Assembly: GCA_041304605.1 (NCBI GenBank)
Contig: JBFYNB010000001.1
Span: 9,469 to 73,468 of the forward strand
Length of the DNA: 64,000 nt
From: Methanomassiliicoccales archaeon
GTDB taxonomy: Archaea > Thermoplasmatota > Thermoplasmata > Methanomassiliicoccales > UBA472
Reading direction: 5' to 3'
The notes beneath the pieces were generated by a model. The model was not told the DNA's origin, searched no databases, and was given only the letters and a program-made list of their open reading frames with translations. Positions 3,934-39,541 of the stretch are shown piece after piece. Every line of letters begins with the position of its first letter. Position 1 is the stretch's first letter. The translations under genes and the position numbers were made by a program.

Positions 3934-4671
3934 ATGAACATAATTGACGTTCTCAGACTGGATATAGGGGATGTAGAGAAGGAATTCACTCAGATAGCTT
4001 CCGTCCTTGGGAATTTGGGGCTTTCAAATTATGAAGCGAGGTCCTACGTGGCCCTTGTACTTAGGACGCACGGAACGGCCGAGGAGGTCGCCGAGCTGTC
4101 CATGATCCCCCGTACCTCGGCCTACAAATCACTTCAATCCTTGGTGACCAAAGGATTCGCTCAGGAGACGGACGGCCGCCCCGCGATCTACTATCCTCTG
4201 GACATAGAGGAACTGCGCGAGAGGACCATGAACGAGATGAACGGAATGTTCGCCAAGCTGAGCTCGATCAAGGGGCTTCTCTCGGAAAAAGGGACGCCAG
4301 AGCTGGTGTACACCATCTATGGGCGAAAGAAGGTGCTGACGAAGATAGGTGAGATGCTCGATACCGCCCGGACGACATTCATGATATCCTCGCCCAAGAT
4401 GCAGGACATCCGCTCCGAGCTATCCGATCGCTTCAAGGAGGCCCAGGCCAGAGGGGTGAAGATCATCATAATAACCGAACCGGCGGTCAAGGTCCCCTCG
4501 GCCGACGAGGTGTTCCGCAGGAAGGGTCTGATCGCCACGGACGTGATAGTGGACGGAACGTTGGCCATGATAGCCAGCGAGGACATGGACCTGTGCGGTT
4601 TCTCCGACAATCCGCTCATAGCGGCGCATCTTGAGAACTTTCTGCATATGGTGAAAGGCTCCAAAGCGTAA
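3934..4671 (+). CDS. TrmB-family transcriptional regulator (winged helix plus C-terminal effector-like domain)
   Basis: Track ORF, 245 aa. The N-terminal wHTH LGLSNYEARSYVALVLRTHGTAEEVAELSMIPRTSAYKSLQSLVTKGF is typical of TrmB-like proteins. Confidence 0.75.
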   Translation: MNIIDVLRLDIGDVEKEFTQIASVLGNLGLSNYEARSYVALVLRTHGTAEEVAELSMIPRTSAYKSLQSLVTKGFAQETDGRPAIYYPLDIEELRERTMNEMNGMFAKLSSIKGLLSEKGTPELVYTIYGRKKVLTKIGEMLDTARTTFMISSPKMQDIRSELSDRFKEAQARGVKIIIITEPAVKVPSADEVFRRKGLIATDVIVDGTLAMIASEDMDLCGFSDNPLIAAHLENFLHMVKGSKA

Positions 4672-4721
4672 CCTGATTGTAGCTCACCCCCTTTTTATGC
4701 CGCAGGTGATGGTCAGGGGGG
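4672..4721 (+). promoter_or_regulatory. Upstream region of the giant gene: ATTGTAGCT word (4676-4684), identical to 3904-3912, plus TATA-like CTTTTTATG (4690-4698)
   Basis: Direct sequence comparison. The 9-mer is the left arm of the palindrome at the trmB-like promoter. Confidence 0.4.
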
Positions 4722-7700
4722 ATGACCGAAAGAGGCTCGACGCGTGCATTGTCCCGGGACCGCCGGGCGCAGATGCCCTTCTCCCTGATCGCCATAGTTC
4801 TTATCATCGTTTCCAGCCTTTCCGCGGCCTTGATATCCGACCTACGCGACGGGTCTCATGAGGTTAGTCTGACAAGGGAGGAGATCGAGCTCATGGACGA
4901 GGCATCCTCGGAGGCCCAGAGGCAGGTTCAGGGGATGGCCTGGCAGTCATTATTGGCGGCGTGCACCGGTGATTCGCTGAACGAGAGCGCGATCTCCTCG
5001 CGGTTCCAACGCGAACTAGGGCCCATGGTAGCATCCATAAACCCGAGATCCCGGTCCGGCATGGATGTGGAGGTGAACGTTAGCGAAGTTCGACTCTCTT
5101 TCCTGCGCCTTCCCCTGGACCAGGATGTCGCCGGGGGAGAATTCACGGACAAATACGTTCCAGCCTACGTCGGCCTGGCCGGTTCCATTGCCATCAAAAT
5201 ATCCTCCGCCAACGGCAATCTCAGCCGGGATTATCCCGTCGAGGACCAGGGCAAGGTTCCCTGGCCTCTTCTGAACGATCGGATGAATGATTTCGAGGGG
5301 TCGGTCTCTGACGGCCTGGGTGACCTCAGTACCATGGTAAGCTATCTGCTGGAGTCGCTGGCGGCCTACCGCACCGTACAAGGTTGGGGCAGCGGCATTC
5401 TCGGGCAGGAAGGATTGGCCGAAACTGTGGCCAACAGGGACCTCACGAACGCCATCGACCTCGGCCTGATCGTTCTCCAGATGAAGCATTTCCGCCACGC
5501 CACCCCTTGCTACGGCATGAACACGGACGTATTGGACGGTGAGGGTTGCTGGCAGTTCGTCGAGGAGAATCTCAGGGGAGGCGGGACCGTCGATCCGGCG
5601 GACATCTTCCTCGGGCTTTACGGCTATGACCAACTGGATTGGCGCCTGGTGTTCTCCCAGGCCTTGAACTCGGCCATAGAGCGCCTTTCATTGAGATGGA
5701 TGGAGTGCGTCGGCCTGATAAAGCTGTTCGAGATCGCGGAGAAGGCCGGCGAGGAAGTATTCTCTTTCGCCAACGACCTGATTGATCGCACTTTCGACGT
5801 GGACCTGGCAGAGGAACATTTCAAGGATTGGCTGGAGGAGACGTTCGAAGAGGCCGGCGTTCCCGATGTATTATACAGATATCTAGGGGCGGGCGTTCCG
5901 GACGGGTCGATATTTGTTGATGAGGCGGTCATCAACCTGATCGACGCTGATGGGGAATCAACCCCGATATCCGTGGGAGGCCTGGTGGTTCTTGATATCC
6001 CCTTGACCGATGTCCTGGCCTGGGATGGTTGGGGTGATTTCCACGAACAGTACAAGAAGGGCACCCTGGAGATACTGAATGGTATCAGAAGAGAGATCGC
6101 CGTGGTGGCTGAGCAGGTCTCCATGAGCATGTTCCTCCCTCCTGGAGAACTGTCGCTGGACCCTCATGACGGGTTCTCCTTCCTGGAGGAAATGAAGGAT
6201 TCGTTGAACACGGCCCTCGATCAGAAGGACACCTGGATGAGGGCGGCCGTGAGCTCCGCGGGATCCGCCGTGGTGACCGCCGACCCTCTGGCCGAGGCCA
6301 CCAAGGCCGAGTTCCTGGAGAACCGGGAAGCCATCCTGCTCAGGCAGCAGGCGTTGAGTTCCATGGTCTCCAGCACGGCGGAGCAACTTCTGTCGGAAGC
6401 CCTCTCGAGATGCGATAACACGGACATTCCCTGGGACGAAAACCTGAAGGTGCTGGAAGGTCGCATTGTGGGGGATGCCGCCTGGAACGCCAACGAAATG
6501 ATAGAATGGACCTTCGACGAGCACGCTCGGTTCCTCGAGGAACACTTCATGGCCGGACTCAGCGATGGATCATCCTCCGGTACGGTATCGTCCTGGATGG
6601 CCGATGTGATCGCCCGGACCGGCGATCCATACGCAGGCATCTCGGCGGTGCTCAGCGACGATGTCTCCCAAATGTTGTCCGAGATGTCCAACGGCATGCG
6701 CATGCGGGGGGATCGGATGGAGGTAACGCTTCCCGCAACGCCGTACTTTTCCCTCCTAGGTCCAGACGGCCGGGTGCACTCGGAATCCCTGCGGGTGGAG
6801 ACGATATATCCCAACGGGAGCCCTTCGGGTTCCTGGCTCTCATCGTCCATCCTGGACCCCAGTGAGCATCGCGGCTCTCCGGAGTCCGGCGTACAGGTCC
6901 ACGACACTGACGTTCTCGACGCCAAGGCGGCGTCCTATCAATCGGTCTGGAAGGTGGACTTCTCCGGCGAGATATCGATATCGTTGTCACCCGGCGGAGA
7001 GGTCGGCCAGGTGCTCCCACTGCGGCTGGAAAGGCAACTGGGGTTCGAATCCGAACTTGCTGTGGCGGCGCTTACCGGTCACGCTCTGATGGGAGTGAGC
7101 TACGTCAATGTGAACACGTTCGGCCAACAGCTGTCGGAGATCATCGATTCGCTGCTCCGTCCGCTCCAGGAGGGAATGGGAACGCTCACCTCCTATCTGC
7201 GGTCGTTCTACCGGCTCCTACGGGGAGCGATCACCGACCTGGTCGAGATGGGCAGGGATGTCCTGGACACGCTCTCCGCGATGCTCGGGACCATGATCGA
7301 GGAACTACAGGACTTCATCCGCTCGGCCATGGGTTTCGTGGAGTCCAAGGTGGCCAAGCTGTTGCTGGACATCCTGGGCGAGAGATGCGTCACGCTGAGC
7401 TTCCTTGGTGTGGACATGAAGGTGAATTTGAGGCCCAAGGACCTGGACTACCGGGAGGTCGGGGTACCAGCTTCCATCTCCCTTACCTTCAAGACGGAAG
7501 ATTGCCGCATCGACGTGACCACCAGGTTGATCAAGGGCCAAGGAAACCTCAGCCTTCTCACGAACGCCTCCCTGCGGGGCAAGGATTGGGTCGTCTCCGT
7601 GGTGGTCGACCCCTTCATGGACGTGTTCCGGCACATGGTAGAGGTCCGGGGATTGGTGGACGGGGCCTGCGTGGAACTGGTCATGCCCGAGGTGGTTAGC

Positions 7701-8885
7701 TACAGAAAGGTCACGTTCTCCCTGGCCGACATACCGGGGGTGGGGGCGTTGCTGTCCAACATCCCGCTCCCCATACCCGGCCTGAAAGGGGCCGTGAACG
7801 CCGGGGTCTACATCAAGGTTCTGGAGGGCAGGACCGATCAGGTGGTCATAAACGAGTACGAGCTGAATCCCGCGGGCGAGGACGCCGGCAGGGAGTGGGT
7901 GGAGCTTTACAATCCCACCACGGAGGCGGTCGACCTGACCGGGTGGACCATCGAGACCCGGCACGGGGTCCAGGGCCTGGGATCGCTGGGCGGGGTCCTG
8001 CTGCCCCGAACGCGGATGGTGTATCAGTTCTCGGGACAGGCCCTGGACAACATCGGGGAAGGTTTCCCGTTCGAGGAAAGCCTGGTCCTCCGGGACGAGC
8101 GCGGCCGGAGGGTGGACAGCGCCCCTTTCTCCACCGACTGCTGGAACGACGACCGGACCTGGCAGAGGGCCAAGGACGCGGCCGACCGCTGGGAGTTCAA
8201 GAGCGGTTCTAGAGGATCTTCCAACGGGAGGGATATCTTCTCCATCCTGGACCTCGACACCGTCGAGCAGGTGTACTTCGCCGCGGTCACCGAGTCGCTT
8301 TACCAGCTTTCCTCTGGGGACCTGAGCATGGAAGCCCTGGCGGTAACTATGGAAACCGCAATGCTGCGGATGCTGGAAAGGCTCGCCTCCAGCATACTCG
8401 ACAAGGAGGTGGCGGCCGGGCTGTTCGTGGAGGTGGCGGTGACCGAGGCGTCGTCGACCGCGAAGTCAGGGATGCGGATGGAGGTCATCTGGCGCTGCGG
8501 AACCCTGCGGGACGCGCTGCATGAACTGGCCAGTTCGGCCAGGCCGCTGACGCTATCCCTGGGCAACCCCTTCCAGGCCTATCTGGACGGACTGCCCTCC
8601 GCCAGCGGCATCTGGCTGGCCATGTCCGCTTTCGGCGCGGTCGGCGTTCCCAATATGATCCGCGCCCCCGGTTACAGCACGGAGGTAAGATACCAGGCCT
8701 CGGTGGCGGTGGATCTCGGCGTTCTAGCCACGGTCTTCGGCCTCAGGACCTCCGGATGGTCCATGGAGGCGGGGGTCAAGATAACCGGGGTGCCGGCGAC
8801 AGCCGTCCCAATGTTCAAGGCTCCTTACGGAACGACGATGGACATTTGGCTGTGCAAAGTGACCGTTCAGGGGGTATCAGCTTGA
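4722..8885 (+). CDS. Very large (1387 aa) membrane-anchored acidic protein with an internal lamin-tail domain; function unknown
   Basis: Uninterrupted track ORF with native-like GC3 bias. The N-terminus has a basic stretch and one hydrophobic helix (PFSLIAIVLIIVSSLSAALI). I recognise no enzymatic motif. An LTD signature lies near aa 1043-1160. Confidence 0.85.
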   Translation: MTERGSTRALSRDRRAQMPFSLIAIVLIIVSSLSAALISDLRDGSHEVSLTREEIELMDEASSEAQRQVQGMAWQSLLAACTGDSLNESAISSRFQRELGPMVASINPRSRSGMDVEVNVSEVRLSFLRLPLDQDVAGGEFTDKYVPAYVGLAGSIAIKISSANGNLSRDYPVEDQGKVPWPLLNDRMNDFEGSVSDGLGDLSTMVSYLLESLAAYRTVQGWGSGILGQEGLAETVANRDLTNAIDLGLIVLQMKHFRHATPCYGMNTDVLDGEGCWQFVEENLRGGGTVDPADIFLGLYGYDQLDWRLVFSQALNSAIERLSLRWMECVGLIKLFEIAEKAGEEVFSFANDLIDRTFDVDLAEEHFKDWLEETFEEAGVPDVLYRYLGAGVPDGSIFVDEAVINLIDADGESTPISVGGLVVLDIPLTDVLAWDGWGDFHEQYKKGTLEILNGIRREIAVVAEQVSMSMFLPPGELSLDPHDGFSFLEEMKDSLNTALDQKDTWMRAAVSSAGSAVVTADPLAEATKAEFLENREAILLRQQALSSMVSSTAEQLLSEALSRCDNTDIPWDENLKVLEGRIVGDAAWNANEMIEWTFDEHARFLEEHFMAGLSDGSSSGTVSSWMADVIARTGDPYAGISAVLSDDVSQMLSEMSNGMRMRGDRMEVTLPATPYFSLLGPDGRVHSESLRVETIYPNGSPSGSWLSSSILDPSEHRGSPESGVQVHDTDVLDAKAASYQSVWKVDFSGEISISLSPGGEVGQVLPLRLERQLGFESELAVAALTGHALMGVSYVNVNTFGQQLSEIIDSLLRPLQEGMGTLTSYLRSFYRLLRGAITDLVEMGRDVLDTLSAMLGTMIEELQDFIRSAMGFVESKVAKLLLDILGERCVTLSFLGVDMKVNLRPKDLDYREVGVPASISLTFKTEDCRIDVTTRLIKGQGNLSLLTNASLRGKDWVVSVVVDPFMDVFRHMVEVRGLVDGACVELVMPEVVSYRKVTFSLADIPGVGALLSNIPLPIPGLKGAVNAGVYIKVLEGRTDQVVINEYELNPAGEDAGREWVELYNPTTEAVDLTGWTIETRHGVQGLGSLGGVLLPRTRMVYQFSGQALDNIGEGFPFEESLVLRDERGRRVDSAPFSTDCWNDDRTWQRAKDAADRWEFKSGSRGSSNGRDIFSILDLDTVEQVYFAAVTESLYQLSSGDLSMEALAVTMETAMLRMLERLASSILDKEVAAGLFVEVAVTEASSTAKSGMRMEVIWRCGTLRDALHELASSARPLTLSLGNPFQAYLDGLPSASGIWLAMSAFGAVGVPNMIRAPGYSTEVRYQASVAVDLGVLATVFGLRTSGWSMEAGVKITGVPATAVPMFKAPYGTTMDIWLCKVTVQGVSA
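7842..8200 (+). other. Lamin-tail domain (LTD) segment inside the giant protein
   Basis: VVINEYELNPAGEDAGREWVELYNPTTEAVDLTGWTIETRHG...LVLRDERGRRVDSAPF matches the NE..NP.G.D...EW.ELYN......L.GW pattern of LTDs. Confidence 0.7.
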
Positions 8886-17732: not shown

Positions 17733-18397
17733 AGGCGATCTGCCTGCTCTCCGGAGGGCTGGATTCCACGGTCACTCTGGCCTACGCCCTTCATCAGGGA
17801 TACGAGGTCACCGCCCTAACCATCAATTACGGGCAAAGGCACAAGCGGGAGCTGGACGCTGCCCGTGCCGTCGCCGCCCACTACAAGGTGCCGCACATCG
17901 TGATGGAGTTCCCGCTCACCGGGTTCCGCAGCGCCCTCACCGATGATTCGATCCCCATCCCCGACCGGAGGTCCGAGGAGATCGGGTACGACATACCGGA
18001 GACGTACGTTCCGGCCAGGAACATCGTCTTCCTCAGTCTGGCTGCCGGGCTGGCCGAATCGGTGGACGCCAGCGCGGTCTTCATCGGGGCCAACGCTATC
18101 GATTACAGCGGCTACCCGGACTGTCGTCCGGAGTTCTTCCAATCGTTCGAGAACATGCTGGAGGTCGGGACGAAGAGGGGAGTGCTGGGTCACCCGGTAC
18201 GCATCGAGCACCCCATTCTCAAAAATACCAAGGCGGAGATCGTGAAGATGGGCATCAAGCTGGAAGCTCCGCTTCACCTCACCTGGAGCTGCTACCGCGG
18301 CGGCGAGAAGGCCTGCGGCCACTGCGACTCCTGCGTCCTGCGGCTGAAAGGCTTCAGGGAGGCCGGGGCCAAGGACCCAGTGCCCTACGAGGGCTGA
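17729..18397 (+). CDS. queC: 7-cyano-7-deazaguanine (preQ0) synthase
   Basis: Track ORF, 222 aa. SGGLDS PP-loop and C-terminal Zn site CGHCDSCVLR. Confidence 0.9.
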   Translation: MKAICLLSGGLDSTVTLAYALHQGYEVTALTINYGQRHKRELDAARAVAAHYKVPHIVMEFPLTGFRSALTDDSIPIPDRRSEEIGYDIPETYVPARNIVFLSLAAGLAESVDASAVFIGANAIDYSGYPDCRPEFFQSFENMLEVGTKRGVLGHPVRIEHPILKNTKAEIVKMGIKLEAPLHLTWSCYRGGEKACGHCDSCVLRLKGFREAGAKDPVPYEG

Positions 18398-18399
18398 GG

Positions 18400-19029
18400 A
18401 TGCTCATCAACGAGATGTTCCTCTCCATACAAGGCGAAGGAAGGACCATGGGCCTGCCTACGGTGTTCGTGCGCCTGAGCGGCTGCAATCTCGATTGCCG
18501 CTGGTGCGATACGCGTTACGCCGAGGAGGGCGGGTCGGAGCTATCCGTGGACGAGGTCCTAGCCGGTGTCAACGGCTACCGCACCAGGCATGTGTGCTTG
18601 ACAGGCGGGGAACCGTTATGGCACGAAGAAACGCCCGAGCTCATCTCCCGGCTGCTGGGGGAAGGCAAGCATGTTTCCCTGGAGACCAACGGTTCGCTTC
18701 CCATTGCGGGCCTACCGGACGACCCGCAGCTGATGATCAGCATGGACTACAAGTGCCCCTCCTCCGGCATGGAGGGCCGCATGCTTCTGGAGAACCTCGA
18801 GCATCTGAGGCCCAAGGACCAGCTGAAGTTCGTGGTGGCGGACAAGGAAGATCTGGAAAGGGCCGAGGACGTTCTGCGAAAGTACGAACCGAACTGTCCG
18901 GTGATACTCACCCCGGTGGGCGGTCTTACGCTCGCTCCAGTGGTGGAGTTCGTTCTGAAACGAAGGTTAGAGGTAAGGGTGCTGCCGCAGCTGCACAAGC
19001 TCATCTGGGGCGAGAGGCGCGGCGTTTGA
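18400..19029 (+). CDS. queE: 7-carboxy-7-deazaguanine synthase (radical SAM)
   Basis: Track ORF, 209 aa. FLSIQGEG and cluster motif CNLDCRWCDT. Confidence 0.9.
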   Translation: MLINEMFLSIQGEGRTMGLPTVFVRLSGCNLDCRWCDTRYAEEGGSELSVDEVLAGVNGYRTRHVCLTGGEPLWHEETPELISRLLGEGKHVSLETNGSLPIAGLPDDPQLMISMDYKCPSSGMEGRMLLENLEHLRPKDQLKFVVADKEDLERAEDVLRKYEPNCPVILTPVGGLTLAPVVEFVLKRRLEVRVLPQLHKLIWGERRGV

Positions 19030-19052
19030 GGCGTGTCAGACCTTAGCAATGA

Positions 19053-19063
19053 TTATATAATAT
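19053..19063 (+). promoter_or_regulatory. TATA-like box TTATATAATAT upstream of the leu-operon leader
   Basis: AT-rich block in an otherwise GC-rich intergenic region, about 40 nt before the leader ATG. Confidence 0.5.
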
Positions 19064-19100
19064 GCTTCTAGTTCCCCTCAATCACATACGAGGTATGACG

Positions 19101-19148
19101 ATGAGCATCATCATTATCGTGGACGGACACGGTCTTTTGCGTGCTTAA
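19101..19148 (+). CDS. Candidate leader peptide MSIIIIVDGHGLLRA (15 codons; an in-frame ATG at 19095 would add MT)
   Basis: My own translation. GAGGT (19090-19094) lies 6 nt before the ATG. Four consecutive Ile codons, then Val, and two Leu. It lies 43 nt upstream of leuA/cimA. Confidence 0.4.
   Translation: MSIIIIVDGHGLLRA
19116..19138 (+). promoter_or_regulatory. Candidate attenuator: hairpin ATCGTG-GACGGA-CACGGT followed by CTTTT
   Basis: 6-bp stem (one G-U) whose 5' arm is the last Ile codon plus the Val codon of the leader. T4 run at 19135-19138. Also, CGATGAGC (19099-19106) is perfectly complementary to GCTCATCG (19153-19160). Confidence 0.3.
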
Positions 19149-19190
19149 ATCGGCTCATCGCTGCGACCTTGGATGTGAGAGTTGGTTATC

Positions 19191-20795
19191 ATGACCGAAC
19201 TTCGAACGCCGTACAGTCAGGACTCCAGCGCCCGTAACGGGCAAGAGAAGGACAGGATATTCACCAGTCACTTCAATCGCTTGGCCTTGGACCCCTGCAC
19301 CCCCGATCGCGTGGAGATACTGGACACCACCCTTCGGGACGGGGAGCAGACGCCAGGGGTGGCGCTGTCCATGGACGACAAGGTGCGGATAGCGCAGCTG
19401 CTGGACGACCTTGGCGTGGACGTGATCGAGGCCGGTTTTCCCCGAACTTCCATAGGCGAGCAGGAGGCCATCCGCAAGATCAGCTCTCTGAAGCTGAGGG
19501 CCAAGGTATGCGGTCTCGCCCGCTGCTCCAGGGAGGACATCGATTCAGCGGTCGACAACGGCGTGGATTACGTCCATACGTTCATCGCCACCTCCGAAGG
19601 GCATATGAAGAACAAGCTCAAGATGACCCGGGAGCAGGTGAAGGCCCGGGCGGTGGACGCGGTAGAGTACGCCCGTTCCCGAGGCGTCATCGTCGAGTTC
19701 TCCTGCGAGGACGGCACCCGCACCGAGCTCGACTTCCTGAAGGAGATGCATGTCGCCGTCCAGGAAGCTGGCGTTCACAAGATCAACCTGCCGGACACCG
19801 TGGGAACCATGTCCCCGGCGGCCATGGAGTACCTGGTCTCCGAGGTCATGAAGGTGACCAAGGTCCCGCTGTCGATCCATTGCCACGATGATTTCGGTCT
19901 TGCCGTGGCGAACTCCATGGCCGCGGTGCGCAAGGGCGCCCGCCAGGTCCATGTCTGCGTGAACGGCCTTGGGGAGCGTGCCGGAAACGCCGCGCTGGAG
20001 GAGGTCGTCATGAGCCTGCTGGCCTTCCTCAACGTGCACACCAACGTGGACACCCGGAAGCTGGGAATGACGTCCCGTGCCGTGGCCAGGATGACCGGCG
20101 TACCCGTTCCGGACACCAAGGCCATTGTCGGCAACAACGCCTTCGCCCACGAGTCCGGGATACACGTTCATGGCGTGCTGAAGGACCCCTCGACCTACGA
20201 GGCCTTCTCCCCCGAGCTGGTAGGCATGCAGCGCAACATAGTCATGGGCAAGCACACCGGCGCTCATTCGGTCAAGGAAAAGCTGAGCGAGTACGGGATC
20301 CTCCTGCCGGAGGAGATGCTATCGACCGTGGTCGGCAAGATCAAGACCCTGGCCGAGAGCGGCAAGGAGGTGGACGACGCCGAGCTGGTGGCTCTGGCGA
20401 TGCACATACAGGGCCAGGAGGGCCAGGAGCACCAGCACGTAAAGCTAAAGGAGTTCACGGTGTTCACCGGCATGAACATCACTCCCACGTCGACCGTGGT
20501 CATCGAGGTGGACGGGAAGACGGTGCGCTCGTCGGACGTAGGCATCGGACCGGTGGACGCGGCGCTGAACGCGATACGTACGGCAGTGAGCGAGAACATC
20601 TCGCTGGTCGAGTACCGCCTGAACGCTATAACTGGTGGGAGCGACGCCCTGTGCGAGGTGACCGTGAAGCTGAGGATGAACGGCGACCAAAAGGTGATGT
20701 CGGTGGGCAAGAGCATCGGCTCGGACATAGTGCTCACCAGCGTGAACGCCGCCATGGCCGCCATCGACCGCCTGCTGGGCAGGCAAAGATCATAA
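19191..20795 (+). CDS. leuA: 2-isopropylmalate synthase / (R)-citramalate synthase family enzyme
   Basis: Track ORF 19182..20795 (TTG); the ATG at 19191 is preferred. Motifs LDTTLRDGEQTPGV and HCHDDFGLAVANS, plus a C-terminal LeuA-dimer regulatory domain. LeuA and CimA cannot be told apart by eye. Confidence 0.85.
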   Translation: MTELRTPYSQDSSARNGQEKDRIFTSHFNRLALDPCTPDRVEILDTTLRDGEQTPGVALSMDDKVRIAQLLDDLGVDVIEAGFPRTSIGEQEAIRKISSLKLRAKVCGLARCSREDIDSAVDNGVDYVHTFIATSEGHMKNKLKMTREQVKARAVDAVEYARSRGVIVEFSCEDGTRTELDFLKEMHVAVQEAGVHKINLPDTVGTMSPAAMEYLVSEVMKVTKVPLSIHCHDDFGLAVANSMAAVRKGARQVHVCVNGLGERAGNAALEEVVMSLLAFLNVHTNVDTRKLGMTSRAVARMTGVPVPDTKAIVGNNAFAHESGIHVHGVLKDPSTYEAFSPELVGMQRNIVMGKHTGAHSVKEKLSEYGILLPEEMLSTVVGKIKTLAESGKEVDDAELVALAMHIQGQEGQEHQHVKLKEFTVFTGMNITPTSTVVIEVDGKTVRSSDVGIGPVDAALNAIRTAVSENISLVEYRLNAITGGSDALCEVTVKLRMNGDQKVMSVGKSIGSDIVLTSVNAAMAAIDRLLGRQRS

Positions 20796-20804
20796 GGTGA
20801 ACTG

Positions 20805-22073
20805 ATGAGAACGGACCCCAAGACCATCTCGGAAAAGATACTGTCATTGAAGTCCCGGACGGATGCCAGGGCAGGGGACATCGTCGAAGCGGACGTAGAC
20901 TATGTCATGGTGAACGATGTGACGGGACCATTGGCCTTCCAGGAGTTCGAGGCCCTGGAATGCGAGCCGGTGCGCGACAAGATCGTGCTCATCCCGGACC
21001 ACTTCGTGCCCAACAAGGACGTCGCGTCGGCCAAGCAGGCCAAGGAGATGCGCGACTTCGCCAAGCGCTGGGGCATCAAGAACTACTTCGAGGTCGGGCG
21101 CGGAGGCGTCTGCCACCAGGTAATGCTGGACAACGGCTTCGCCTACCCCGGGGCGCTGGTCGTCGGAGCGGACTCCCACACCTGCACCTACGGAGGAGTG
21201 AACGCCTTCGCCACCGGCGTCGGAAGTTCCGAGGCGGCGGCGGTGTTCGCCACCGGCCAGCTGTGGTTCAAGGTTCCAGGTTCCATAAGGGTCCTGCTCA
21301 AGGGACGGCCGTCCAAGTACGTGGGCGGGAAGGACCTGGTGCTCAAGCTCATAAGCGACATAGGGGTCGACGGGGCCACGTACAAGACCCTGGAGTTCGG
21401 GGGTACTGGAGTTTCGTCATTGACCGTCTCCGACCGTCTGTCGGTATCCAACATGGCCATCGAGGCCGGCGGAAAGGCAGGGATATTTCCCTGCGACGCG
21501 GCCACGGTGGCTTACATGAAGACCGTTCGGAAGGACGGGTTCAATGCCACCCTTCCCGATGACGGCGCATCGTACGAAAGTACCCTGGAATACGATCTGT
21601 CGTCGTTAGAGAGCATGGTGGCCCTGCCGCACCTCCCGTCCAACGGGAAGGCGGCGAGGGACGTCAAGGTCCAGATCGATCAGGCTTACCTAGGCTCGTG
21701 CACCAACGGCCGCATCGAGGACCTTCGCCTGGGGGCGGAGATAATGCGTGGACGGAAGGTGCACAAGGACGTGCGCATGGTGGTCGTACCCGCTTCCGTC
21801 AAGGTGTTCGAGCAGGCCATGGACGAAGGACTTCTTACGGTATTCTCCAAGGCCGGGGCGTTCGTTTCCGGGCCGACGTGCGGAGCATGCCTAGGCGGAC
21901 ACATGGGTATACTCGCCCCGGGCGAGAGATGCGTCAGCAGCACCAATCGCAACTTCATCGGCCGCATGGGACACCGGGATTCCGAGGTGTACCTGGCCGG
22001 GCCGGCCGTGGTGGCCGCATCCGCCGTCACCGGACGCATAACCGACCCCAGGGACCTGGAGGCGGTGCAATGA
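20805..22073 (+). CDS. leuC: 3-isopropylmalate (or citraconate) dehydratase large subunit
   Basis: Track ORF, 422 aa. Aconitase-family cluster ligand contexts GSCTNGRIEDL and GPTCGACLGG. AAGGTGA SD upstream. Confidence 0.9.
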   Translation: MRTDPKTISEKILSLKSRTDARAGDIVEADVDYVMVNDVTGPLAFQEFEALECEPVRDKIVLIPDHFVPNKDVASAKQAKEMRDFAKRWGIKNYFEVGRGGVCHQVMLDNGFAYPGALVVGADSHTCTYGGVNAFATGVGSSEAAAVFATGQLWFKVPGSIRVLLKGRPSKYVGGKDLVLKLISDIGVDGATYKTLEFGGTGVSSLTVSDRLSVSNMAIEAGGKAGIFPCDAATVAYMKTVRKDGFNATLPDDGASYESTLEYDLSSLESMVALPHLPSNGKAARDVKVQIDQAYLGSCTNGRIEDLRLGAEIMRGRKVHKDVRMVVVPASVKVFEQAMDEGLLTVFSKAGAFVSGPTCGACLGGHMGILAPGERCVSSTNRNFIGRMGHRDSEVYLAGPAVVAASAVTGRITDPRDLEAVQ

Positions 22074-22564
22074 AGGACGTAAATGGTAAAGTTTGGAAGT
22101 TCGGCGACCACGTGGACACCGACCAGATAATTCCTGCTGAACGGCTCACCAGCGACAACAACGACAAGCTCGGCACCTTCGCCTTCGAGAAGGTCCGGCC
22201 GGAGATGGTCAAGCTGGTCAGCAAGGGCGATATCATCGTGGCCGGACGCAACTTCGGCTGCGGATCGAGCCGGGAGCACGCGCCCCGGGCGCTGCTGCAG
22301 ATGGGCATATCCTGCGTGGTGGCGGAAAGTTACGCCAGGATATTCTATCGCAACTGCATCAACACCGGGCTCCTGCCCGTCGAGTGCCGCGTGGAGGCCG
22401 ACGATGGCGACGTGCTTTCCGTCGATCTCTCAAAAGGTATCATAATCAACCAGACCAAGGGGAAGGAGTGGAAGTTCGCCCCCTTCCCGAAGTTCGTCCA
22501 GGAGCTCATGGACAAGGGCGGCCTCATGGCCAAGATCAAGGAGGAGAAGAGATGCACAAGATAG
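22070..22564 (+). CDS. leuD: 3-isopropylmalate dehydratase small subunit
   Basis: Internal ATG of track ORF 21698..22564. ATGA overlap with the leuC stop. Sequence KVWKFGDHVDTDQIIP and GRNFGCGSSREHA. Confidence 0.9.
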   Translation: MKDVNGKVWKFGDHVDTDQIIPAERLTSDNNDKLGTFAFEKVRPEMVKLVSKGDIIVAGRNFGCGSSREHAPRALLQMGISCVVAESYARIFYRNCINTGLLPVECRVEADDGDVLSVDLSKGIIINQTKGKEWKFAPFPKFVQELMDKGGLMAKIKEEKRCTR

Positions 22565-23667
22565 CGGTACTGCCAGGGGACGGCATCGGCCCGGAGGTCG
22601 TGGCCGAGGGCCTGAAGGTTCTGAACGCCCTTTCCGAGAACTACTCGGTCAAGTTCGACTTCCAGGAGTTCGGCATCAATTCGGAACGTTACCTGAGCAC
22701 CGGGAAGCTGGTGACCGATGACGATATCGACCAGCTGCGCAAGTTCGACAGCATATTCCTGGGAGCGATCGGCGACGACCGGGTGAAGCCGGGCGTCCTG
22801 GAGAAGGGGATACTTCTCGCGCTCCGATTCAGCTTCGACCAGTACATCAACCACCGGCCGGCGCCCCTGTGGAAACCTTTCGGCCGCCTGAAGAGGGACG
22901 TTGATTTCAACATCGACGTGTTCAGGGAGAACACCGAGGACTATTACATCGGTGCCGGTGGACGGGTGACCGGTGGGAAGGGGTCCATCGACATGAGGGT
23001 CAAGCGCCACCTGTATGATATGAAGGTCAGGCTGGAAGCGAACGCTGACGCTGCCGACGACTACGCCTTCGAGATCGGCATGATGTCCCGCAAGAACATC
23101 GAACGTTTCGCGGACCACGTCATCGATTTCTCGAACCTCATCGGGGAGAACTACATCACCGTGGTGGACAAGGCCAACGTCTGCAGCAACATATACTCCC
23201 TGTGGAGGGAGGTCTGGGACGAGAAGTGCAAGCGGGCGGGCAAGGAGCACGGCTACATGTACGTCGACGCCATGACCATGGCCCTGGTCAAGAACCCGGA
23301 CAAGTTCCGCCTGATCGCCGTGCCGAACATGTTCGGGGACATCATAACCGATCTGCTGGCCGAGGTGACCGGCGGTCTAGGACTGGCTCCGGGCGGCAAC
23401 ATCAACCCCCATGGCATATCCATGTTCGAACCGGTGCACGGCTCCGCTCCCAAGTACAAGGGCATGGACCGCATCAACCCGGTGGCGACGATACTGGCGG
23501 CCAAGATGATGATGGACAACCTGGGCCGCAGGGACCTCGGCGACGTGATCTTCAAGGGGGTCCGCGGGGCCTTTGACAAAGGTGTCTACACCCAGGACCT
23601 AGGCGGCAAGGCCACCACGAAGCAGATGGGCGACGCGGTCGTTGCGGCTATCCAAGCGCTGAAGTGA
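22552..23667 (+). CDS. leuB: 3-isopropylmalate dehydrogenase (isocitrate/isopropylmalate dehydrogenase family)
   Basis: Internal ATG of track ORF 22384..23667. Sequence MHKIAVLPGDGIGPEV and NMFGDIITDL. Overlaps leuD by 13 nt. Confidence 0.85.
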   Translation: MHKIAVLPGDGIGPEVVAEGLKVLNALSENYSVKFDFQEFGINSERYLSTGKLVTDDDIDQLRKFDSIFLGAIGDDRVKPGVLEKGILLALRFSFDQYINHRPAPLWKPFGRLKRDVDFNIDVFRENTEDYYIGAGGRVTGGKGSIDMRVKRHLYDMKVRLEANADAADDYAFEIGMMSRKNIERFADHVIDFSNLIGENYITVVDKANVCSNIYSLWREVWDEKCKRAGKEHGYMYVDAMTMALVKNPDKFRLIAVPNMFGDIITDLLAEVTGGLGLAPGGNINPHGISMFEPVHGSAPKYKGMDRINPVATILAAKMMMDNLGRRDLGDVIFKGVRGAFDKGVYTQDLGGKATTKQMGDAVVAAIQALK

Positions 23668-23727: not shown

Positions 23728-24483
23728 ATGGCCAAGACGGGGAGTTGGGCCTACGCGTTGGGCGTGGCCATTCTGGTGATGTCCAGCGGCATGGTGGGGT
23801 ACTGGCTGGCGCCGGGGGAGGCCTCGGCGGATGCGGATAGGGACTCTTACTATCAGGTCTCGACGTACGGTCGCCTGAGCGAGGGAGGGTACCAGGGCAT
23901 GATATCCATAGACAAGCTGCTGGAGCACGGGGACTTCGGCATCGGCACGGTGGAAGGGATAGACGGGGAGATGATGGTGCTGGATGGCGTAGCCTACCGG
24001 GCCGGTACGGACCTGGTCCCGGTGGAGGTCCCCTCCGGGACCATGATACCATTCGCCATGCTGACCTATTTCGATGAGATGGAATCTCAAATCCTGACCG
24101 AAGAACTGAACTACACAACCTTCAAGGACATGCTGGATGACATCCTAAAGGAGAAGATAGTGTACGCCGTCATGATCGAGACGGAGTTCGATTCGATCAT
24201 CATCCGGAGCGTTCCGGGGCAGCAGGAGCCATACCCGCCCCTGGTGGATGTCGTGGCCAACCAGACCACCATGCGCCTGGAGAACGTGCGTGGAACAATG
24301 ATCGGTTACTACATCTCAGAAGGGCTGGGAGACATCAACGTCCCCGGCTTCCACATGCACTTCCTGAGCGAGGACCTGTCTTACGGAGGACACGTGCTGG
24401 ACGTGGAGTTCAGCAATTTCGCGGTACGAATTGATCCCGTGAGCACCTACACCGTGCTGTTCACGGAGAGCGTCATCACCTGA
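23728..24483 (+). CDS. Alpha-acetolactate decarboxylase with an N-terminal signal/anchor helix
   Basis: Track ORF, 251 aa. YQVSTYGRLSEGGYQG...LLEHGDFGIGTVEGIDGEMMVLDG and HMHFLSEDLSYGGHVLD match ALDC hallmarks. The N-terminus WAYALGVAILVMSSGMVGYWLA is hydrophobic. Confidence 0.75.
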   Translation: MAKTGSWAYALGVAILVMSSGMVGYWLAPGEASADADRDSYYQVSTYGRLSEGGYQGMISIDKLLEHGDFGIGTVEGIDGEMMVLDGVAYRAGTDLVPVEVPSGTMIPFAMLTYFDEMESQILTEELNYTTFKDMLDDILKEKIVYAVMIETEFDSIIIRSVPGQQEPYPPLVDVVANQTTMRLENVRGTMIGYYISEGLGDINVPGFHMHFLSEDLSYGGHVLDVEFSNFAVRIDPVSTYTVLFTESVIT

Positions 24484-32053: not shown

Positions 32054-33499
32054 CTACTTCCTGAGATTTTCCCAAACTCCGTCCAGACGAGCTATCTCGC
32101 CGTCGCATTCCGCGCGGTGGGATTCCATTATTGCCCGAGCTGAGACGACCTGCTCGACCACCCTTTCCGGCGCTGTGCCTCCCAACGAAGTGCGACGGCG
32201 CAGGCAGGCGTCCAGGGAGATGAATTTCAGAGAATCCTTATCCAACAGCTCGGAGAACGCCCTCAGCTCCTTAACCGTGAGCGATTCCAGCTTCTTGCCC
32301 TTCTTGACGCAATATTGAACGGCGGCGCCCACCACCTCGTGCGCCTGCCGGAAGGGCATGCCCTTCTGCACCAGATGGTCCGCGAGGTCCGTGGCGTTCA
32401 GGAAACCGTCCGCGCAGGCGTTCGCCATACGTTCCCTGTTGAACGAAAGGTCGCGGTACATCGGCCCCATCATGAAAAGGCAGGAGGTCAGCGTCTCGTA
32501 GCTGGAGAACACCGATCCCTTGTCCTCCTGCATGTCCCGGTTGTAACTTAGCGGCAGCCCCTTCATGACGGTGAGGAGCTGCATCAGGTTGCCGATGGCT
32601 ATGGAGCTCCGCCCGCGCACCAGCTCGGCCACGTCCGGGTTCTTCTTCTGCGGCATTATGGAACTTCCGGTGGCGAAGGCGTCCGGCATCTCCGCGAAGC
32701 GGAACTCCGGGGACGTCCACAGCACCAGCTCCTCGCCCATGCTGCTCAGGTGCACCATGGCCTGGGCGCAATCGTAGGCGAACTCCAAGGCGAAGTCCCG
32801 GTCGCTAACGGTGTCCATGGCGTTGTCCGTGGGACGGTCGAAGCCCAGCAATTCCGAGGTCATCTCGCGGTCCACTGGATGCCCGGTTCCGGCCAGGGCT
32901 CCCGCGCCCAGGGGGCACTGGTTCAGGCGCTTGTAGGCGTCCAGGAACCTTTCGGCGTCCCTCTGCAGGCGGAAGACATGTGCCAGTATATGGAATCCCA
33001 GCGAAACGGGTTGGGCGTGCTGCATGTGGGTGAAACCGGGCATGATGGTCCCGGTCTCCTTTTCCGCCCGGTCTAGAAGTTCGGACTGAACGTCCAGCAG
33101 CAGGGTAACGATCTCCAGCATGGCGTCCCGCACGAACATGCGGAAGTCCGTGGCGACCTGATCGTTGCGGCTCCGGGCGGTGTGAAGGCGCTTTCCGGCA
33201 TCTCCAACCCTTTCGGTCAGGATATGCTCCACGTTGGTGTGCACGTCCTCCAGCTCGGGGGAGAAGTCCAGTCGTCCCGCCTCCAGGTCGATGAGCAGCT
33301 GCTTCAGGCCGTTCGCCAATAGGACGGATTCGTCCCTTTGGATTATTCCGGCCTCGCCCAGCATCCTGGCGTGGGCCATCGAGCCGACGATGTCGTACCA
33401 GGCCAGCCTGGTGTCTACCGACAGGGACGATGTGAACGACAGGGTCATCTCGGACGGACCCTCGGCGAAACGACCGGACCACAGCTGCTTCTCGGCCAT
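32054..33499 (-). CDS. argH: Argininosuccinate lyase
   Basis: Track ORF 32054..33757, trimmed to ATG 33499 (MAEKQLWSGRF). Fumarate-lyase signature GSSIMPQKKNPD. Confidence 0.95.
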   Translation of the reverse strand: MAEKQLWSGRFAEGPSEMTLSFTSSLSVDTRLAWYDIVGSMAHARMLGEAGIIQRDESVLLANGLKQLLIDLEAGRLDFSPELEDVHTNVEHILTERVGDAGKRLHTARSRNDQVATDFRMFVRDAMLEIVTLLLDVQSELLDRAEKETGTIMPGFTHMQHAQPVSLGFHILAHVFRLQRDAERFLDAYKRLNQCPLGAGALAGTGHPVDREMTSELLGFDRPTDNAMDTVSDRDFALEFAYDCAQAMVHLSSMGEELVLWTSPEFRFAEMPDAFATGSSIMPQKKNPDVAELVRGRSSIAIGNLMQLLTVMKGLPLSYNRDMQEDKGSVFSSYETLTSCLFMMGPMYRDLSFNRERMANACADGFLNATDLADHLVQKGMPFRQAHEVVGAAVQYCVKKGKKLESLTVKELRAFSELLDKDSLKFISLDACLRRRTSLGGTAPERVVEQVVSARAIMESHRAECDGEIARLDGVWENLRK

Positions 33500-33504
33500 G
33501 AAGA

Positions 33505-34722
33505 TCACTTCTTCTGGGCCTTCGCCACGCTGCGCAACGGGAGACCCCACACGTAGATGAAGCCCTCCGCGGACTTGTGGTTGAACTGGTCCCCCTCGGC
33601 GTATGTAGCTAGTCCCGTATCGTACAGCGAGTACGGCGAGGAGCGGCCCACTATGGTGGCACTGCCCTTGTAGAGCTTTACCCTTACGGTTCCGTCGATG
33701 TACTCCTGGGTCTTGTCGATGAAGGCGGTGAGCGCTTCCATCAACGGGGAGAACCAAAGCCCATCGTAGGCCAGCTCGGAGAAGCGCTGCTCGATGCCGC
33801 GCTTGTAGCTGAAGACGTCCTTGGTCAGGACCATCTTCTCCAGGTCCTTGTGCGCGTTTATGAGGATCATGGCCGCCGGGGACTCGTAGATCTCGCGGGA
33901 CTTTATGCCGACAAGGCGGTCCTCGATATGATCTATGCGTCCGTATCCATGCTTCCCGCCCAGCTGGTTGAGCTTCTTGACGATGTCGGTCATGGACATC
34001 TTCTTGCTCTTGTTGAGCCCGACCGGCAATCCCTTTTTGAAGTGAATTTCCACGTACTCCGGCTTATCGGGAGCGTCCGCCGGGTCGACGGTCCATTCGT
34101 AGGCGTCCTTCGGCGGCTCTTCCATGGCGTCCTCCAGGATCCCGCACTCGCAGCTGCGCCCCCAGATGTTCTCGTCGGTGCTGTACGGGCACTCCTTCTT
34201 GACCTTGATCGGAACGTCGTTCTTCCGGGCGTACTCGATCTCGTCCTCCCTGGTCATTACCCATTCCCTCATGGGGGCGATGATCTTGATCTCCGGGGCC
34301 AGAGCGGCGATGCTGACGTCAAAGCGCACCTGGTCGTTGCCCTTGGCGGTGCAGCCATGGGCTATGAACTTGGCGCCTTCCTTCTTGGCGATGTCCACCA
34401 TTATCCTGGCTATGAGCGGCCTGGCGATGGACGTTGCCAACGGATAGGTCCCCATGTACAGGGCGTTGGCCTTCAGGGACGGTCCGATGTAATCCTTCAC
34501 GAACTCCTCGGTCGCGTTGAAAGCGTAAGCTTGCACCGCTCCTATCTGTAGCGCGCGGTCGACAGCCTCCTGGAGGTCTCCAGGCTGACCGACGTTGATG
34601 CTGACCGCGATGACGTCCAGATCGTAATTCTGCTGCAACCACCGAATGGCCACGGACGTGTCCAGACCTCCGGAGTACGCCAGCACCACCTTGTCTCGAA
34701 CCTTCTTAGCGCGAGCTGCCAT
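33505..34722 (-). CDS. argG: Argininosuccinate synthase
   Basis: Track ORF 33505..34782, trimmed to ATG 34722. AYSGGLDTS PP-loop. Confidence 0.95.
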   Translation of the reverse strand: MAARAKKVRDKVVLAYSGGLDTSVAIRWLQQNYDLDVIAVSINVGQPGDLQEAVDRALQIGAVQAYAFNATEEFVKDYIGPSLKANALYMGTYPLATSIARPLIARIMVDIAKKEGAKFIAHGCTAKGNDQVRFDVSIAALAPEIKIIAPMREWVMTREDEIEYARKNDVPIKVKKECPYSTDENIWGRSCECGILEDAMEEPPKDAYEWTVDPADAPDKPEYVEIHFKKGLPVGLNKSKKMSMTDIVKKLNQLGGKHGYGRIDHIEDRLVGIKSREIYESPAAMILINAHKDLEKMVLTKDVFSYKRGIEQRFSELAYDGLWFSPLMEALTAFIDKTQEYIDGTVRVKLYKGSATIVGRSSPYSLYDTGLATYAEGDQFNHKSAEGFIYVWGLPLRSVAKAQKK

Positions 34723-34798
34723 GTGAATCTGCGGCGATGAAGCGGCCATGCATATTAATCTAAAGTGGCGGAAGTGGGACAATGTCAGATTCTAGTGT

Positions 34799-36338: not shown

Positions 36339-36426
36339 TTCAGAATGAAAATGTCCCATTTGGGGCATAATACTTAATAAACAAACTCTTAATTCGGCAA
36401 ACTCCAATATTGGGCGAGGAAACTGA

Positions 36427-37443
36427 ATGATAAAGGCAGCTGTGGTCGGGGGTTCCGGTTACATCGGCGGGGAGCTGGCGCGCCTGCTCAGCCGTCATCC
36501 TAAGATCTCTCTGGAAGCGATAACCTCCAGGCAGTTGGCCGGACAGCAGGTGGCGGACACCCACCCGTTCCTGCGCGGCTACGTCGACCTCAAGTTCAAC
36601 GAGTCCGTCACCGGCCAGGGATTGGACGTCGTGTTCCTGGCCACCCCGCACGGCGCCTCCATGAAGCTGGCGCCGGAGATCGCCCGCAGCGGGGCCAAGG
36701 TGATCGACCTAAGCGGCGACTACCGGCTCAAGGACCCCGCGTCCTACAAGAAATGGTACGGTCACGATCACGCCGACCTGGATAACCTGGGCAAGGCCGT
36801 CTACGGTCTGAACGAGCTATACTGGGACGAGATCGCCGAGGCCGATTTCATCGCAAATCCGGGATGCTATCCCACCTGCTCCACGCTCGGATTGGCACCT
36901 CTGTTCGCCAATCATCTGGTGGCTGGCGGCGTAATAATTGACGCTAAGAGCGGAACGTCCGGGGCGGGCGCAGAGCCGACCAAGGCCAGTCATCATCCCA
37001 ATTGCGGAGCTAGCGTCAACCCTTACAAGGTCGGAACGCATCGTCACACACCGGAGATCGCTCAAACCCTGACCCGAATTCAGGGCAGGCTGGCCGAGGT
37101 GGTCTTCACTCCTCATCTCATACCCGTGGTGCGCGGGATGCTGTGCACCATGTACCTCAAGCTCAACGACGACCTTACCAAACAGGAACTGCTTGGCATG
37201 TACACCGAGTTCTTCCGTAGGAAGCGCTTCGTGCGCATGACAGAGGTGCCGTGGATGCAGGCCGTGATCGGCTCCAACCATTGCGAGGTGGGATTGGAAG
37301 TGGTTGGCGACAGGAACGTGGTGGTCATGAGCGCGATCGACAACCTGGTAAAGGGAGGGGCCGGACAGGCGGTGCAGAACTGCAACGCGATGTTCGGATG
37401 GCCTGAGGAAACGGGATTGGATTTCCCGGGATTGGGGGTTTAA
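36427..37443 (+). CDS. argC: N-acetyl-gamma-glutamyl-phosphate reductase
   Basis: Track ORF, 338 aa. GGSGYIGGEL Rossmann motif and active-site PGCYPT. Confidence 0.95.
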   Translation: MIKAAVVGGSGYIGGELARLLSRHPKISLEAITSRQLAGQQVADTHPFLRGYVDLKFNESVTGQGLDVVFLATPHGASMKLAPEIARSGAKVIDLSGDYRLKDPASYKKWYGHDHADLDNLGKAVYGLNELYWDEIAEADFIANPGCYPTCSTLGLAPLFANHLVAGGVIIDAKSGTSGAGAEPTKASHHPNCGASVNPYKVGTHRHTPEIAQTLTRIQGRLAEVVFTPHLIPVVRGMLCTMYLKLNDDLTKQELLGMYTEFFRRKRFVRMTEVPWMQAVIGSNHCEVGLEVVGDRNVVVMSAIDNLVKGGAGQAVQNCNAMFGWPEETGLDFPGLGV

Positions 37444-37445
37444 AG

Positions 37446-38672: not shown

Positions 38673-38676
38673 TCAG

Positions 38677-39531: not shown

Positions 39532-39541
39532 GGTTTAAGAC

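Follow-up and report, generated by a model that had tools for sequence, protein, structure and literature searches.

A conserved leucine-codon reading frame within a covarying predicted RNA helix upstream of leuA in the Methanomassiliicoccales: a candidate ribosome-mediated attenuator

Leader-peptide attenuation is a textbook consequence of transcription being coupled to translation in bacteria. In attenuators of the leuL, trpL, hisL and ilvL type, a short open reading frame (ORF) led by a Shine-Dalgarno (SD) sequence lies at the 5' end of the mRNA of a biosynthetic operon. Minor codons for the amino acid that the pathway makes are clustered in this ORF (four CUA codons in leuL), and RNA pairing depends on the position of the ribosome. 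In tnaC/Rho of E. coli and mgtL/Rho of Salmonella, a stalled ribosome hides a factor entry site. The nearest described functional relative of the system presented here is the actinobacterial LEU element (PMC1262725), which has a Leu-run upstream ORF (uORF) in front of leuA and no terminator, and whose base stem is formed by the Leu codons paired with the leuA SD. In the mycobacterial poly-Cys leaderless uORFs (bioRxiv 10.1101/834739) and in ermC and cat, a stall on a sensory uORF likewise controls the downstream gene without a terminator, and the stalled ribosome directly blocks a duplex that sequesters the downstream ribosome-binding site. Here, we analyze the leader of the leucine operon leuA-leuC-leuD-leuB in a 64,000-nucleotide (nt) stretch of DNA from a Methanomassiliicoccales archaeon (assembly GCA_041304605.1, contig JBFYNB010000001.1, positions 9,469 to 73,468). 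We call this stretch the window; all coordinates refer to it, and features are on its forward (+) strand unless stated otherwise. We find that, as judged from sequence comparison, the leader contains a conserved, order-wide Leu-codon uORF enclosed in a covarying predicted helix upstream of leuA. We propose that it is a leucine-responsive, ribosome-mediated attenuator, a reading to which we give a probability of roughly 0.65.

The archaeal leader shares with the leuL type the short SD-led ORF at the predicted 5' end of a biosynthetic mRNA, the clustered minor codons for the end product, and an RNA pairing that would depend on ribosome position. It differs in having no 3:4 terminator hairpin with U-run and no four-segment chain; instead, one long helix encloses the entire uORF including its own ribosome-binding site. 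The host is also archaeal, and there is no Rfam leader match. To our knowledge, archaeal polymerase does not use hairpin terminators. The layout is also unlike that of the LEU element: here, the loop contains the Leu codons in unpaired form, the base stem joins the 5' end to the segment after the uORF, and codons 2-4 are the partner of the leuA SD. This comparison draws on per-sequence folds and includes no dedicated test of a Leu-run:SD duplex. Complementarity of the LEU kind between Leu codons and SD is found here in one lineage alone, a more distant Thermoplasmata metagenome-assembled genome (MAG; locus L124). There, the last Leu codons, CUUCUCC, are complementary by eye to the leuA SD, GGAGAG, and the 3' strand of the helix is followed by GGGGUUUUUGG. 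As in the poly-Cys uORFs, ermC and cat, the downstream ribosome-binding site is held in RNA structure, whereas masking of the stall site here leaves its predicted pairing unchanged. By analogy with tnaC/Rho, our preferred version of the output would place a stalled ribosome on a sequence that a factor requires, here a U-tract, with an alternative helix sequestering the rest of the leader. The proposed factor would differ in being an archaeal CPSF73 homologue, and the sensed signal in being tRNA charging rather than the free amino acid. The leader also differs from riboswitches and T-boxes, in that it has no Rfam match and no conserved ligand- or tRNA-binding core.

The leader occupies the 161-nt gap between queE (stop codon at 19027-29, read directly) and the leuA start codon at 19191. 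A TATA box, TTATATAA (19053-60), lies within TTATATAATAT (19053-63). The uORF, MSIIIIVDGHGLLRA (19101-19148), has 15 codons, and its SD, GAGGT (19090-94), precedes its ATG by 6 nt. Its codons include a run of four Ile and one Val (ATC ATC ATT ATC GTG, 19107-19121) and end in CTT TTG CGT GCT TAA. The Leu pair CTT TTG (19134-19139), whose four Us lie at 19135-38, forms the proposed sensor codons. Other in-frame ATGs, at 19095 and 19062, have unusable SD spacing or lie 5' of the predicted transcription start. The original prediction, made from the window alone, had drawn attention to this gap, the TATA-like block, GAGGT, the 15-codon ORF, a hairpin at 19116-33, and two complementary 8-mers; each is present where it was placed. 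It had read them as attenuation by a ribosome stalling on the Ile run, an interpretation that our comparison partly supports: it was partly right in kind and wrong in detail.

We compared about 30 orthologous leuA loci from Methanomassiliicoccales and two other Thermoplasmata MAGs. Of these, L001-L019 are Methanomassiliicoccales MAG loci recovered by scanning a genome collection with LeuA (58-98% identity). A protein search yielded 120 more LeuA homologues, from which the contigs of the eleven maximally different ones were added. An orthologous uORF is found at the same place in all 22 lineages examined, with LeuA identities down to 56%. The predicted short leader ORF is thus conserved, with orthologues across Methanomassiliicoccales and beyond. 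These uORFs are 13-22 codons long and have their own SD and a Leu cluster; among 20 lineage uORFs, 18 open with ATG, and 17 are preceded at a distance of 4-16 nt by an SD-like motif. The gene 5' of leuA is queE in close relatives, and elsewhere a PAS histidine kinase, a glycosyltransferase, a pyrophosphatase or pheA. Because this neighbor differs among lineages, the leader travels with leuA.

Within the window clade (L001-L011), the peptide follows the pattern MS-III-V..G-LLRA, and CTT TTG is invariant. All three stop codons (TAA, TGA, and TAG) occur at one position among close relatives, and the sole indel is one whole codon, the extra ATC of the window. This insertion gives the window its four Ile codons (19107-19118), where other close relatives have three or fewer, except for an identical contig (L032). 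The Ile run, proposed earlier as the regulatory signal, is clade-specific and weakly conserved, and decays even within the clade (IIII, III, IFI, INI, TDI, and IKF). It may be a secondary Ile/Val input in some clades. Outside the window clade, the leader peptides are unrelated apart from a Leu cluster near the C terminus: MSAIHNSFYCLLRL (L034), MVGKNTSRNLLLRLL (L119), MRHNKMICLLLLLH (L033), MRQSIFIGELLLLH (L035), MRFEISAELELLHEMFHSL (L120), MNAERLGLSLLLRLIPAPLL (L012), MRASSNINDLLLRLLPASLL (L014), MDRINLAGILLLIGLVPSP (L118), MSMISTIGQALPLLLRMF (L036), MSQSMNSDHGQEPLLILRAF (L016), MCVIATKLALILRKY (L015), MWNAIKIELLFLRLYC (L122), MVAIYDISEILLL (L123), and MICILISEFRLLIGSDRV (L018), together with MLGMSRTNNGLLILPLGLLLLA (L124, LeuA identity 56%) and MKLGNLDLLLLLLG (L020, 60%) from the two more distant Thermoplasmata MAGs. 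Peptide and nucleotide sequence outside the Leu cluster has fully turned over between clades. Aligning the upstream regions of relatives, the check suggested with the original prediction, shows that the mini-ORF and the 8-mer helix are kept and the Ile run is not.

Leader codons are strongly enriched in Leu. Across 20 lineages, Leu makes up 72 of 307 leader codons (23.5%), against 10.1% in window genes (binomial test, 1e-11). Ile is enriched about 2-fold (11% vs. 5.7%). The expectation of a leader rich in regulatory amino acids therefore holds for Leu, the end product, and fails for the unconserved Ile run. An ATG-initiated uORF with at least three Leu in five codons occurs in 14 of 19 lineages, compared with 2.8% per lineage in dinucleotide shuffles. 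As controls only, we used 80 metagenome LeuA loci among the matches listed, all with no more than 50% identity. A Leu cluster was present in 10 of 76 such distant control loci among the matches listed (Fisher test against 14/19, 6e-7), several of which are evidently genuine bacterial leu leaders. Controls L088 and L108 (MSFRLDSLALLLLLPPRGE and MTHRRNSLALLLLLLPLRGE; GC 68-70%) have a Leu run, CUCCUUCUCCUC, complementary to the downstream SD, as in the LEU element, and control L092 (MRSEMHEKLTDALLRLLGSLLLLRPS, followed by a hairpin and U-run) resembles a classical bacterial attenuator.

The position and identity of the Leu codons are also constrained. TTTTGC starts 31 nt after the ATG in 12 lineages, making CTT and TTG codons 11 and 12; the offset is 34 nt in the window because of its extra Ile codon. 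TTG and CTT together account for 74% of leader Leu codons and 20% of Leu codons in window genes, where CTG accounts for 55%; the leader Leu codons are thus mostly minor ones, much as E. coli leuL relies on rare CUA. In some lineages, the Leu run is kept despite other nucleotides: CTT CTT CTT in L118, TTG CTA TTC TTG in L122, and other mixtures in L124 and L020. This argues for selection at the level of codons. The U4 overlaps the sensor codons in most lineages and is absent from L118 and L122.

The uORF is enclosed by two predicted helices, P1 and P2. The 5' strand of P1, TCACATACGAGGT (19082-19094), sits at the transcript's predicted 5' end and contains the uORF SD; its 3' strand, ACCTTGGATGTGA (19166-19178), ends directly at the hairpin over the leuA SD. 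This outer inverted repeat, TCACATACGAGGT/ACCTTGGATGTGA, lies beyond the elements listed in the original prediction. The strands of P2 are the two 8-mers. One, CGATGAGC (19099-19106), contains the uORF start codon (19101-03); the other, GCTCATCG (19153-19160), which we call the CAUYGCU box, begins 4 nt after the uORF stop. The two are, as had been noted, perfectly complementary, and they form part of a covarying RNA helix. When 19075-19200 is folded, the arms of P1 and P2 join into one long helix around the mini-ORF, and a second hairpin, P4 (19179-19202), pairs the leuA SD region with codons 2-4 and holds the start ATG (19191) in its loop. A small hairpin, P3 (ATCGTG...CACGGT, 19116-19133), lies inside the uORF, directly before the U-tract. 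The fold of 19075-19200 has z=-2.97, with 1 of 200 shuffles as good, and the duplex of the window 5' and 3' strands has z=-4.9. Taken without its relatives, the window is only suggestive; the weight comes from the relatives.

An alignment-free comparison of the duplex between uORF positions -24 to +9 and the segment from the Leu run to the leuA SD against dinucleotide shuffles gave a mean z of -2.9, with p<0.05 in 12 of 19 lineages. Per-sequence folds show the same architecture in almost all lineages with differing sequences, including CAUACGAGGU/ACCUUGGAUG, CCGGGG/CCCCGG, CACCGAG/CUCGGUG, ACAACGGG/CCCGUUGU, AGCCACU/AGUGGCU, and GCACUGA/UCAGUGC. MAFFT followed by RNAalifold on 22 leaders returned no consensus structure because helix registers shift between clades. 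A covariance model was therefore built from the close clade on a hand-drawn structure and rebuilt once (two rounds). It detects L033, L015, L012, L013, L014, L036, and L118 at E values of 8e-7 to 0.05 and, in 262 kb, matches the leuA-upstream site only. In the alignment of 17 sequences fitted to this model, 83% of cells are paired, against 70.5% with partners shuffled and 25-45% with strands slid. Seventeen pairs changed on both sides, and there are 59 compensatory cells where 23.6 are expected (0 of 500 shuffles). Eight of the 11 P1 pairs changed on both sides (85.5% of cells paired), as did three pairs of P2 (87%) and six of the 10 P4 pairs (82%). In paired columns, G-U combinations outnumber A-C combinations by 71 to 19, which indicates that the helix belongs to the sense-strand RNA, not to the DNA or the antisense strand. 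These comparisons support P1, P2, and P4 as predicted helices.

Other pairings fared less well. P3-like hairpins ending 0-2 nt before the U-run occur in about half of the lineages, and their energies are indistinguishable from shuffles over 20 lineages (mean z=-0.44), so that the hairpin at 19116-33, once proposed as a regulatory arm, is not significantly conserved. Since UUGCUUUUGC resembles CAUUGCU, we also examined whether the region of the uORF start pairs with that of the Leu codons; it does so no better than in shuffles (mean z=+0.5). Within the loop bounded by the helix strands, conservation is confined to the Leu codons. Searches of Rfam gave no match at E<=10 in 18000-20500 and none at gathering score in 14 related loci, including to models of the Leu_leader type. 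Beyond the reach of the covariance model, Leu-rich uORFs within a helix upstream of leuA are also seen at L124:2375-2525 and L020:3715-3890; in L020, ATGA is the overlap between a first uORF and the Leu uORF.

In the promoter, a block of the form AGCAA-N3-4-TTATATA (19043-19060 in the window) is conserved across nearly all leuA leaders, and is found at the equivalent place in L012, L014, L033, L034, and L118-L121. In the window, the promoter block (19043-19063) consists of the conserved TTAGCAATGA followed by the TATA box. The AGCAA block could be a variant of the transcription factor B recognition element (BRE) or could bind a further transcription factor that acts on leuA; it is absent from the argC promoter of the same window. 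The distance from TATA box to uORF ATG is 49-52 nt in nearly all lineages. This distance puts the probable 5' end about 17-20 nt upstream of the uORF ATG, at the first paired base of P1, and in the window the TATA position predicts a start at about 19083-19086.

The spacing of these elements is rigid: TATA box, 49 nt, AUG, 30 nt, CUU-UUG, 16 nt, CAU box. The Leu pair lies 30-35 nt after the uORF AUG, the CAU box follows UUG by 16 nt in most lineages, and the uORF AUG is 87±3 nt from the leuA AUG, again in most lineages. The uORF, Leu cluster, helices, and spacings are thus conserved while the intervening sequence turns over. P1 and P2 enclose the uORF in a loop of about 46 nt. We assume that a ribosome protects about -15 to +15 nt around the first nucleotide of the P site. 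With its P site on CUU and its A site on UUG, a ribosome would then cover about +15 to +46; the 5' strand of the helix reaches to about +7, and the 3' strand starts near +48. In this geometric model, the Leu-stalled ribosome is the one uORF position compatible with a closed helix, because an initiating ribosome would cover the 5' strand and a terminating ribosome the 3' strand. The distance of 30 nt is also the spacing of collided ribosomes; as an alternative, a second ribosome trapped on the AUG would reverse the wiring.

We propose that the attenuator works as follows. Since P1/P2 sequesters the SD and AUG of the uORF, a ribosome could load onto the uORF only during transcription, ahead of the synthesis of the 3' strand, giving one pioneer ribosome per transcript. 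The decision would be co-transcriptional or kinetically trapped, and the signal would be the position of this ribosome, either stalled at the Leu pair or run through to the stop. When charged Leu-tRNA is scarce, the ribosome would stall with CUU and UUG in its P and A sites, where its footprint fits between the helix strands. P1/P2 would then close around it, the U-rich sensor tract would be buried, and the operon would be expressed. When Leu is plentiful, the ribosome would reach the stop, cover and unwind the 3' strand, and depart. Its unstalled passage would leave a closed leader with a naked U/C-rich loop that no second ribosome can enter, and expression would be attenuated.

For the output step, our preferred guess, of low confidence, is that the archaeal U-tract-dependent factor FttA/aCPSF1 would cleave the naked leader or terminate transcription prematurely, with access to the U-tract blocked by a stalled ribosome. 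U-tracts are known to act together with aCPSF1/FttA (PMC8716108), and it has been proposed that a coupled ribosome sterically excludes FttA (PMC11616081). This guess would explain why the sensor codons are conserved as nucleotides, and it gets the direction of regulation right; L118 and L122 lack the U4. Output through control of leuA initiation by P4, or through mRNA stability, is nearly as likely. In all lineages, the leuA ribosome-binding site is costly to open (about 9-10 kcal/mol) and is sequestered in the covarying P4, which abuts P1. Two specific routes to this site gained no support: constrained folding showed no effect of unmasking in the manner of ermC, and an extended sequestering hairpin that draws in the 3' strand of P1 scores no better than expected by chance (mean z=-0.76).

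Several observations weigh against a leucine-responsive attenuator. In constrained folding, the unpaired probability of the leuA ribosome-binding site is 0.36 whether the leader is free, stalled, or terminating. Masking the 5' strand changes its opening energy by +0.6-0.9 kcal/mol on average, with a rise in 11-12 of 19 lineages and a fall in four, including the window. After the ribosome departs, the minimum-free-energy structure is the closed helix whether Leu is scarce or plentiful, and the wiring would therefore have to be kinetic. The interval between uORF and leuA has no terminator-like element and, in the window clade, no conserved U-tract. The window uORF has two Leu codons only, and uORFs with two adjacent Leu arise in about 12% of window shuffles (p~0.12). 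The conservation of both UUUUGCG and CAUYGCU extends to the nucleotides themselves, wobble positions among them. A preference for TTG and CTT is also expected if the U-run itself is selected, and a role of the RNA cannot here be separated from codon choice. The pairing and covariation figures of the covariance-model alignment are inflated, since that alignment is fitted to the structure. Two lineages have weak leaders: L121 (MDHSRAEQRTILRE) with one Leu, and L013 with a GTG start at best. Finally, all comparison sequences are MAGs or metagenome contigs, and the lineages are not independent, though the tests treat them so. At the L121 locus (leader 2396-2514), leuC is split into two ORFs (229 + 106 amino acids, 4107-5364), which indicates either a decaying operon or an assembly error.

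The conservation of the two motifs down to their wobble positions is also what would be expected of a structured cis-regulatory RNA, riboswitch-like or protein-binding, that would directly sense leucine or a regulator through UUUUGCG and CAUYGCU displayed on P1/P2, with the ORF incidental. Such an RNA would fit the covarying helices, the lack of a terminator, and a compact base stem like that of riboswitches. We consider it unlikely, because the ORF, its frame, start, and SD are kept while the intervening sequence turns over, and because L118, L122, L124, and L020 keep Leu runs with other nucleotides. Most of the loop is unconserved, which leaves no candidate ligand pocket, and Rfam has no match. 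A T-box, with UUG as specifier and GGUGGU pairing with the ACCA end of a tRNA, was rejected: Rfam gives no match, no module resembling Stem I is present, and the SD itself accounts for GGUGGU. The folding models, in which the leuA ribosome-binding site shows no state-dependent change, would suit a uORF that is translated without sensing an amino acid. Such a uORF would constitutively set leuA translation or form a 5' protective stem-loop, for which the closing of the mRNA 5' end by the helix also speaks, and Leu would be a by-product of U/C-rich RNA. This is at variance with an enrichment that is specific to the end product of the operon and sits at a fixed codon position, with the preference for minor Leu codons, and with the same Leu enrichment in independent bacterial leuA leaders (PMC1262725, PMC5314783); we rank it behind the cis-regulatory RNA, as improbable.

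The original prediction had a ribosome stalled on the Ile run cover the 5' arm of the hairpin at 19116-33 and so prevent termination at T4. A pattern scan of 1 kb does find this hairpin with CTTTTG as the only terminator-like site, where 0.5 are expected by chance; leuCDB could also serve isoleucine synthesis, and Ile has its 2-fold enrichment. Nevertheless, neither the Ile run nor the hairpin is conserved. The hairpin lies inside the ORF and would be melted by any translating ribosome, stalled or not. The conserved Leu codons CTT-TTG make up the T4, which is a weak signal for intrinsic termination in archaea, and 19149-19190 has no U-run. By eye, the SD-AUG spacer contains a U-run in roughly half of the lineage sequences, the window clade not among them. 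With the polymerase at the T-tract, nascent RNA is out only to about +20, and the uORF ribosome-binding site has only just emerged; a ribosome can scarcely have started translation and cannot have reached the Leu codons, which are still inside the polymerase, so termination at T4 controlled by their reading was also rejected. We regard the Ile-hairpin scheme as very unlikely. The least probable explanation, in our view scarcely tenable, is a DNA operator whose inverted repeats bind a transcription factor, for example an Lrp-family regulator. A conserved block downstream of the TATA box is where archaeal repressors often bind, and a separate factor could bind at the AGCAA adjoining the TATA box. 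However, the arms are 46-71 nt apart, compensatory changes preserve pairing rather than sequence, and the excess of G-U over A-C is expected only for sense-strand RNA.

The proposed regulated unit, leuA-leuC-leuD-leuB, spans 19191-23667, with gene calls taken from contig L032: leuA at 19191-20795, leuC (LeuC family match) at 20805-22073, leuD at about 22070-22564, and leuB (LeuB family match) at about 22552-23667. The genes upstream of leuA are queD, queC, and queE, and the window has a G+C content of 60%. The first gene had been taken as leuA/cimA, with a citramalate route to isoleucine in mind. Its 534-amino-acid product scores as a 2-isopropylmalate synthase (NCBIfam NF002085; 647 bits, cutoff 517) and falls well below the cutoff for citramalate synthase (247 bits, cutoff 450). 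It has a LeuA_dimer domain, and an identical protein is found on a Methanomassiliicoccales MAG contig (GCA_041304565.1). Directly 3' of leuB on the same strand lies an acetolactate decarboxylase homologue (23728-24483; TIGR01252, 190 bits, above cutoff), an unexpected partner of a leucine operon in a methanogen-related archaeon.

No other SD-led uORF carrying an amino-acid run was found in the intergenic regions of the window. The window also holds argH/argG (32054-34782, - strand) and argC-argJ-argB-argD (36427-40723, + strand). The argC promoter region (36350-36426) has a TATA-like box, a short 5' untranslated region, and no Arg-rich uORF; leader-peptide control thus does not appear to be general in this window. 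In a 39% GC contig (L023:3740-3930), four tandem units of ~33 nt (AAAAAGTTTGCATCAAAACGATTTCGGTGC) lie directly upstream of a distant leuA homologue. An ORF of 1387 amino acids at 4722-8885 of the window has no Pfam match at E<=1e-12.

Coupling of transcription and translation has been observed in Archaea, and we found no report that it is put to regulatory use. A text search of a review on this coupling in archaea showed no mention of attenuation, attenuators, or leader peptides (PMC8116511), and archaeal ribosome-profiling papers mention merely 'potential uORFs' (PMC11456600, PMC10117724). In the open-access literature searched, we found no archaeal amino-acid-sensing leader peptide, which is absence of evidence, and we likewise found none described in Rfam. 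This agrees with the premise of the original prediction that leader-peptide attenuation is not an established archaeal mechanism.

The Leu leader supports the assignment of this LeuA/CimA-family gene to leucine synthesis, and suggests that archaeal genomes be scanned for uORFs with runs of cognate codons. In its most specific form, the proposal is one of archaeal amino-acid-sensing attenuation in which CUU-UUG doubles as the U-tract of FttA/aCPSF1 and is hidden by the Leu-starved ribosome, with the helix closing around it. We hold this combination to be doubtful; if it is true, logic like that of Rho and tnaC would have evolved independently in the third domain. The ribosome-sized, rigid geometry upstream of leuA offers a concrete, mutable test system, which could show whether and how archaeal ribosomes pass a signal to RNA polymerase, FttA, or a ribosome-binding site further downstream.

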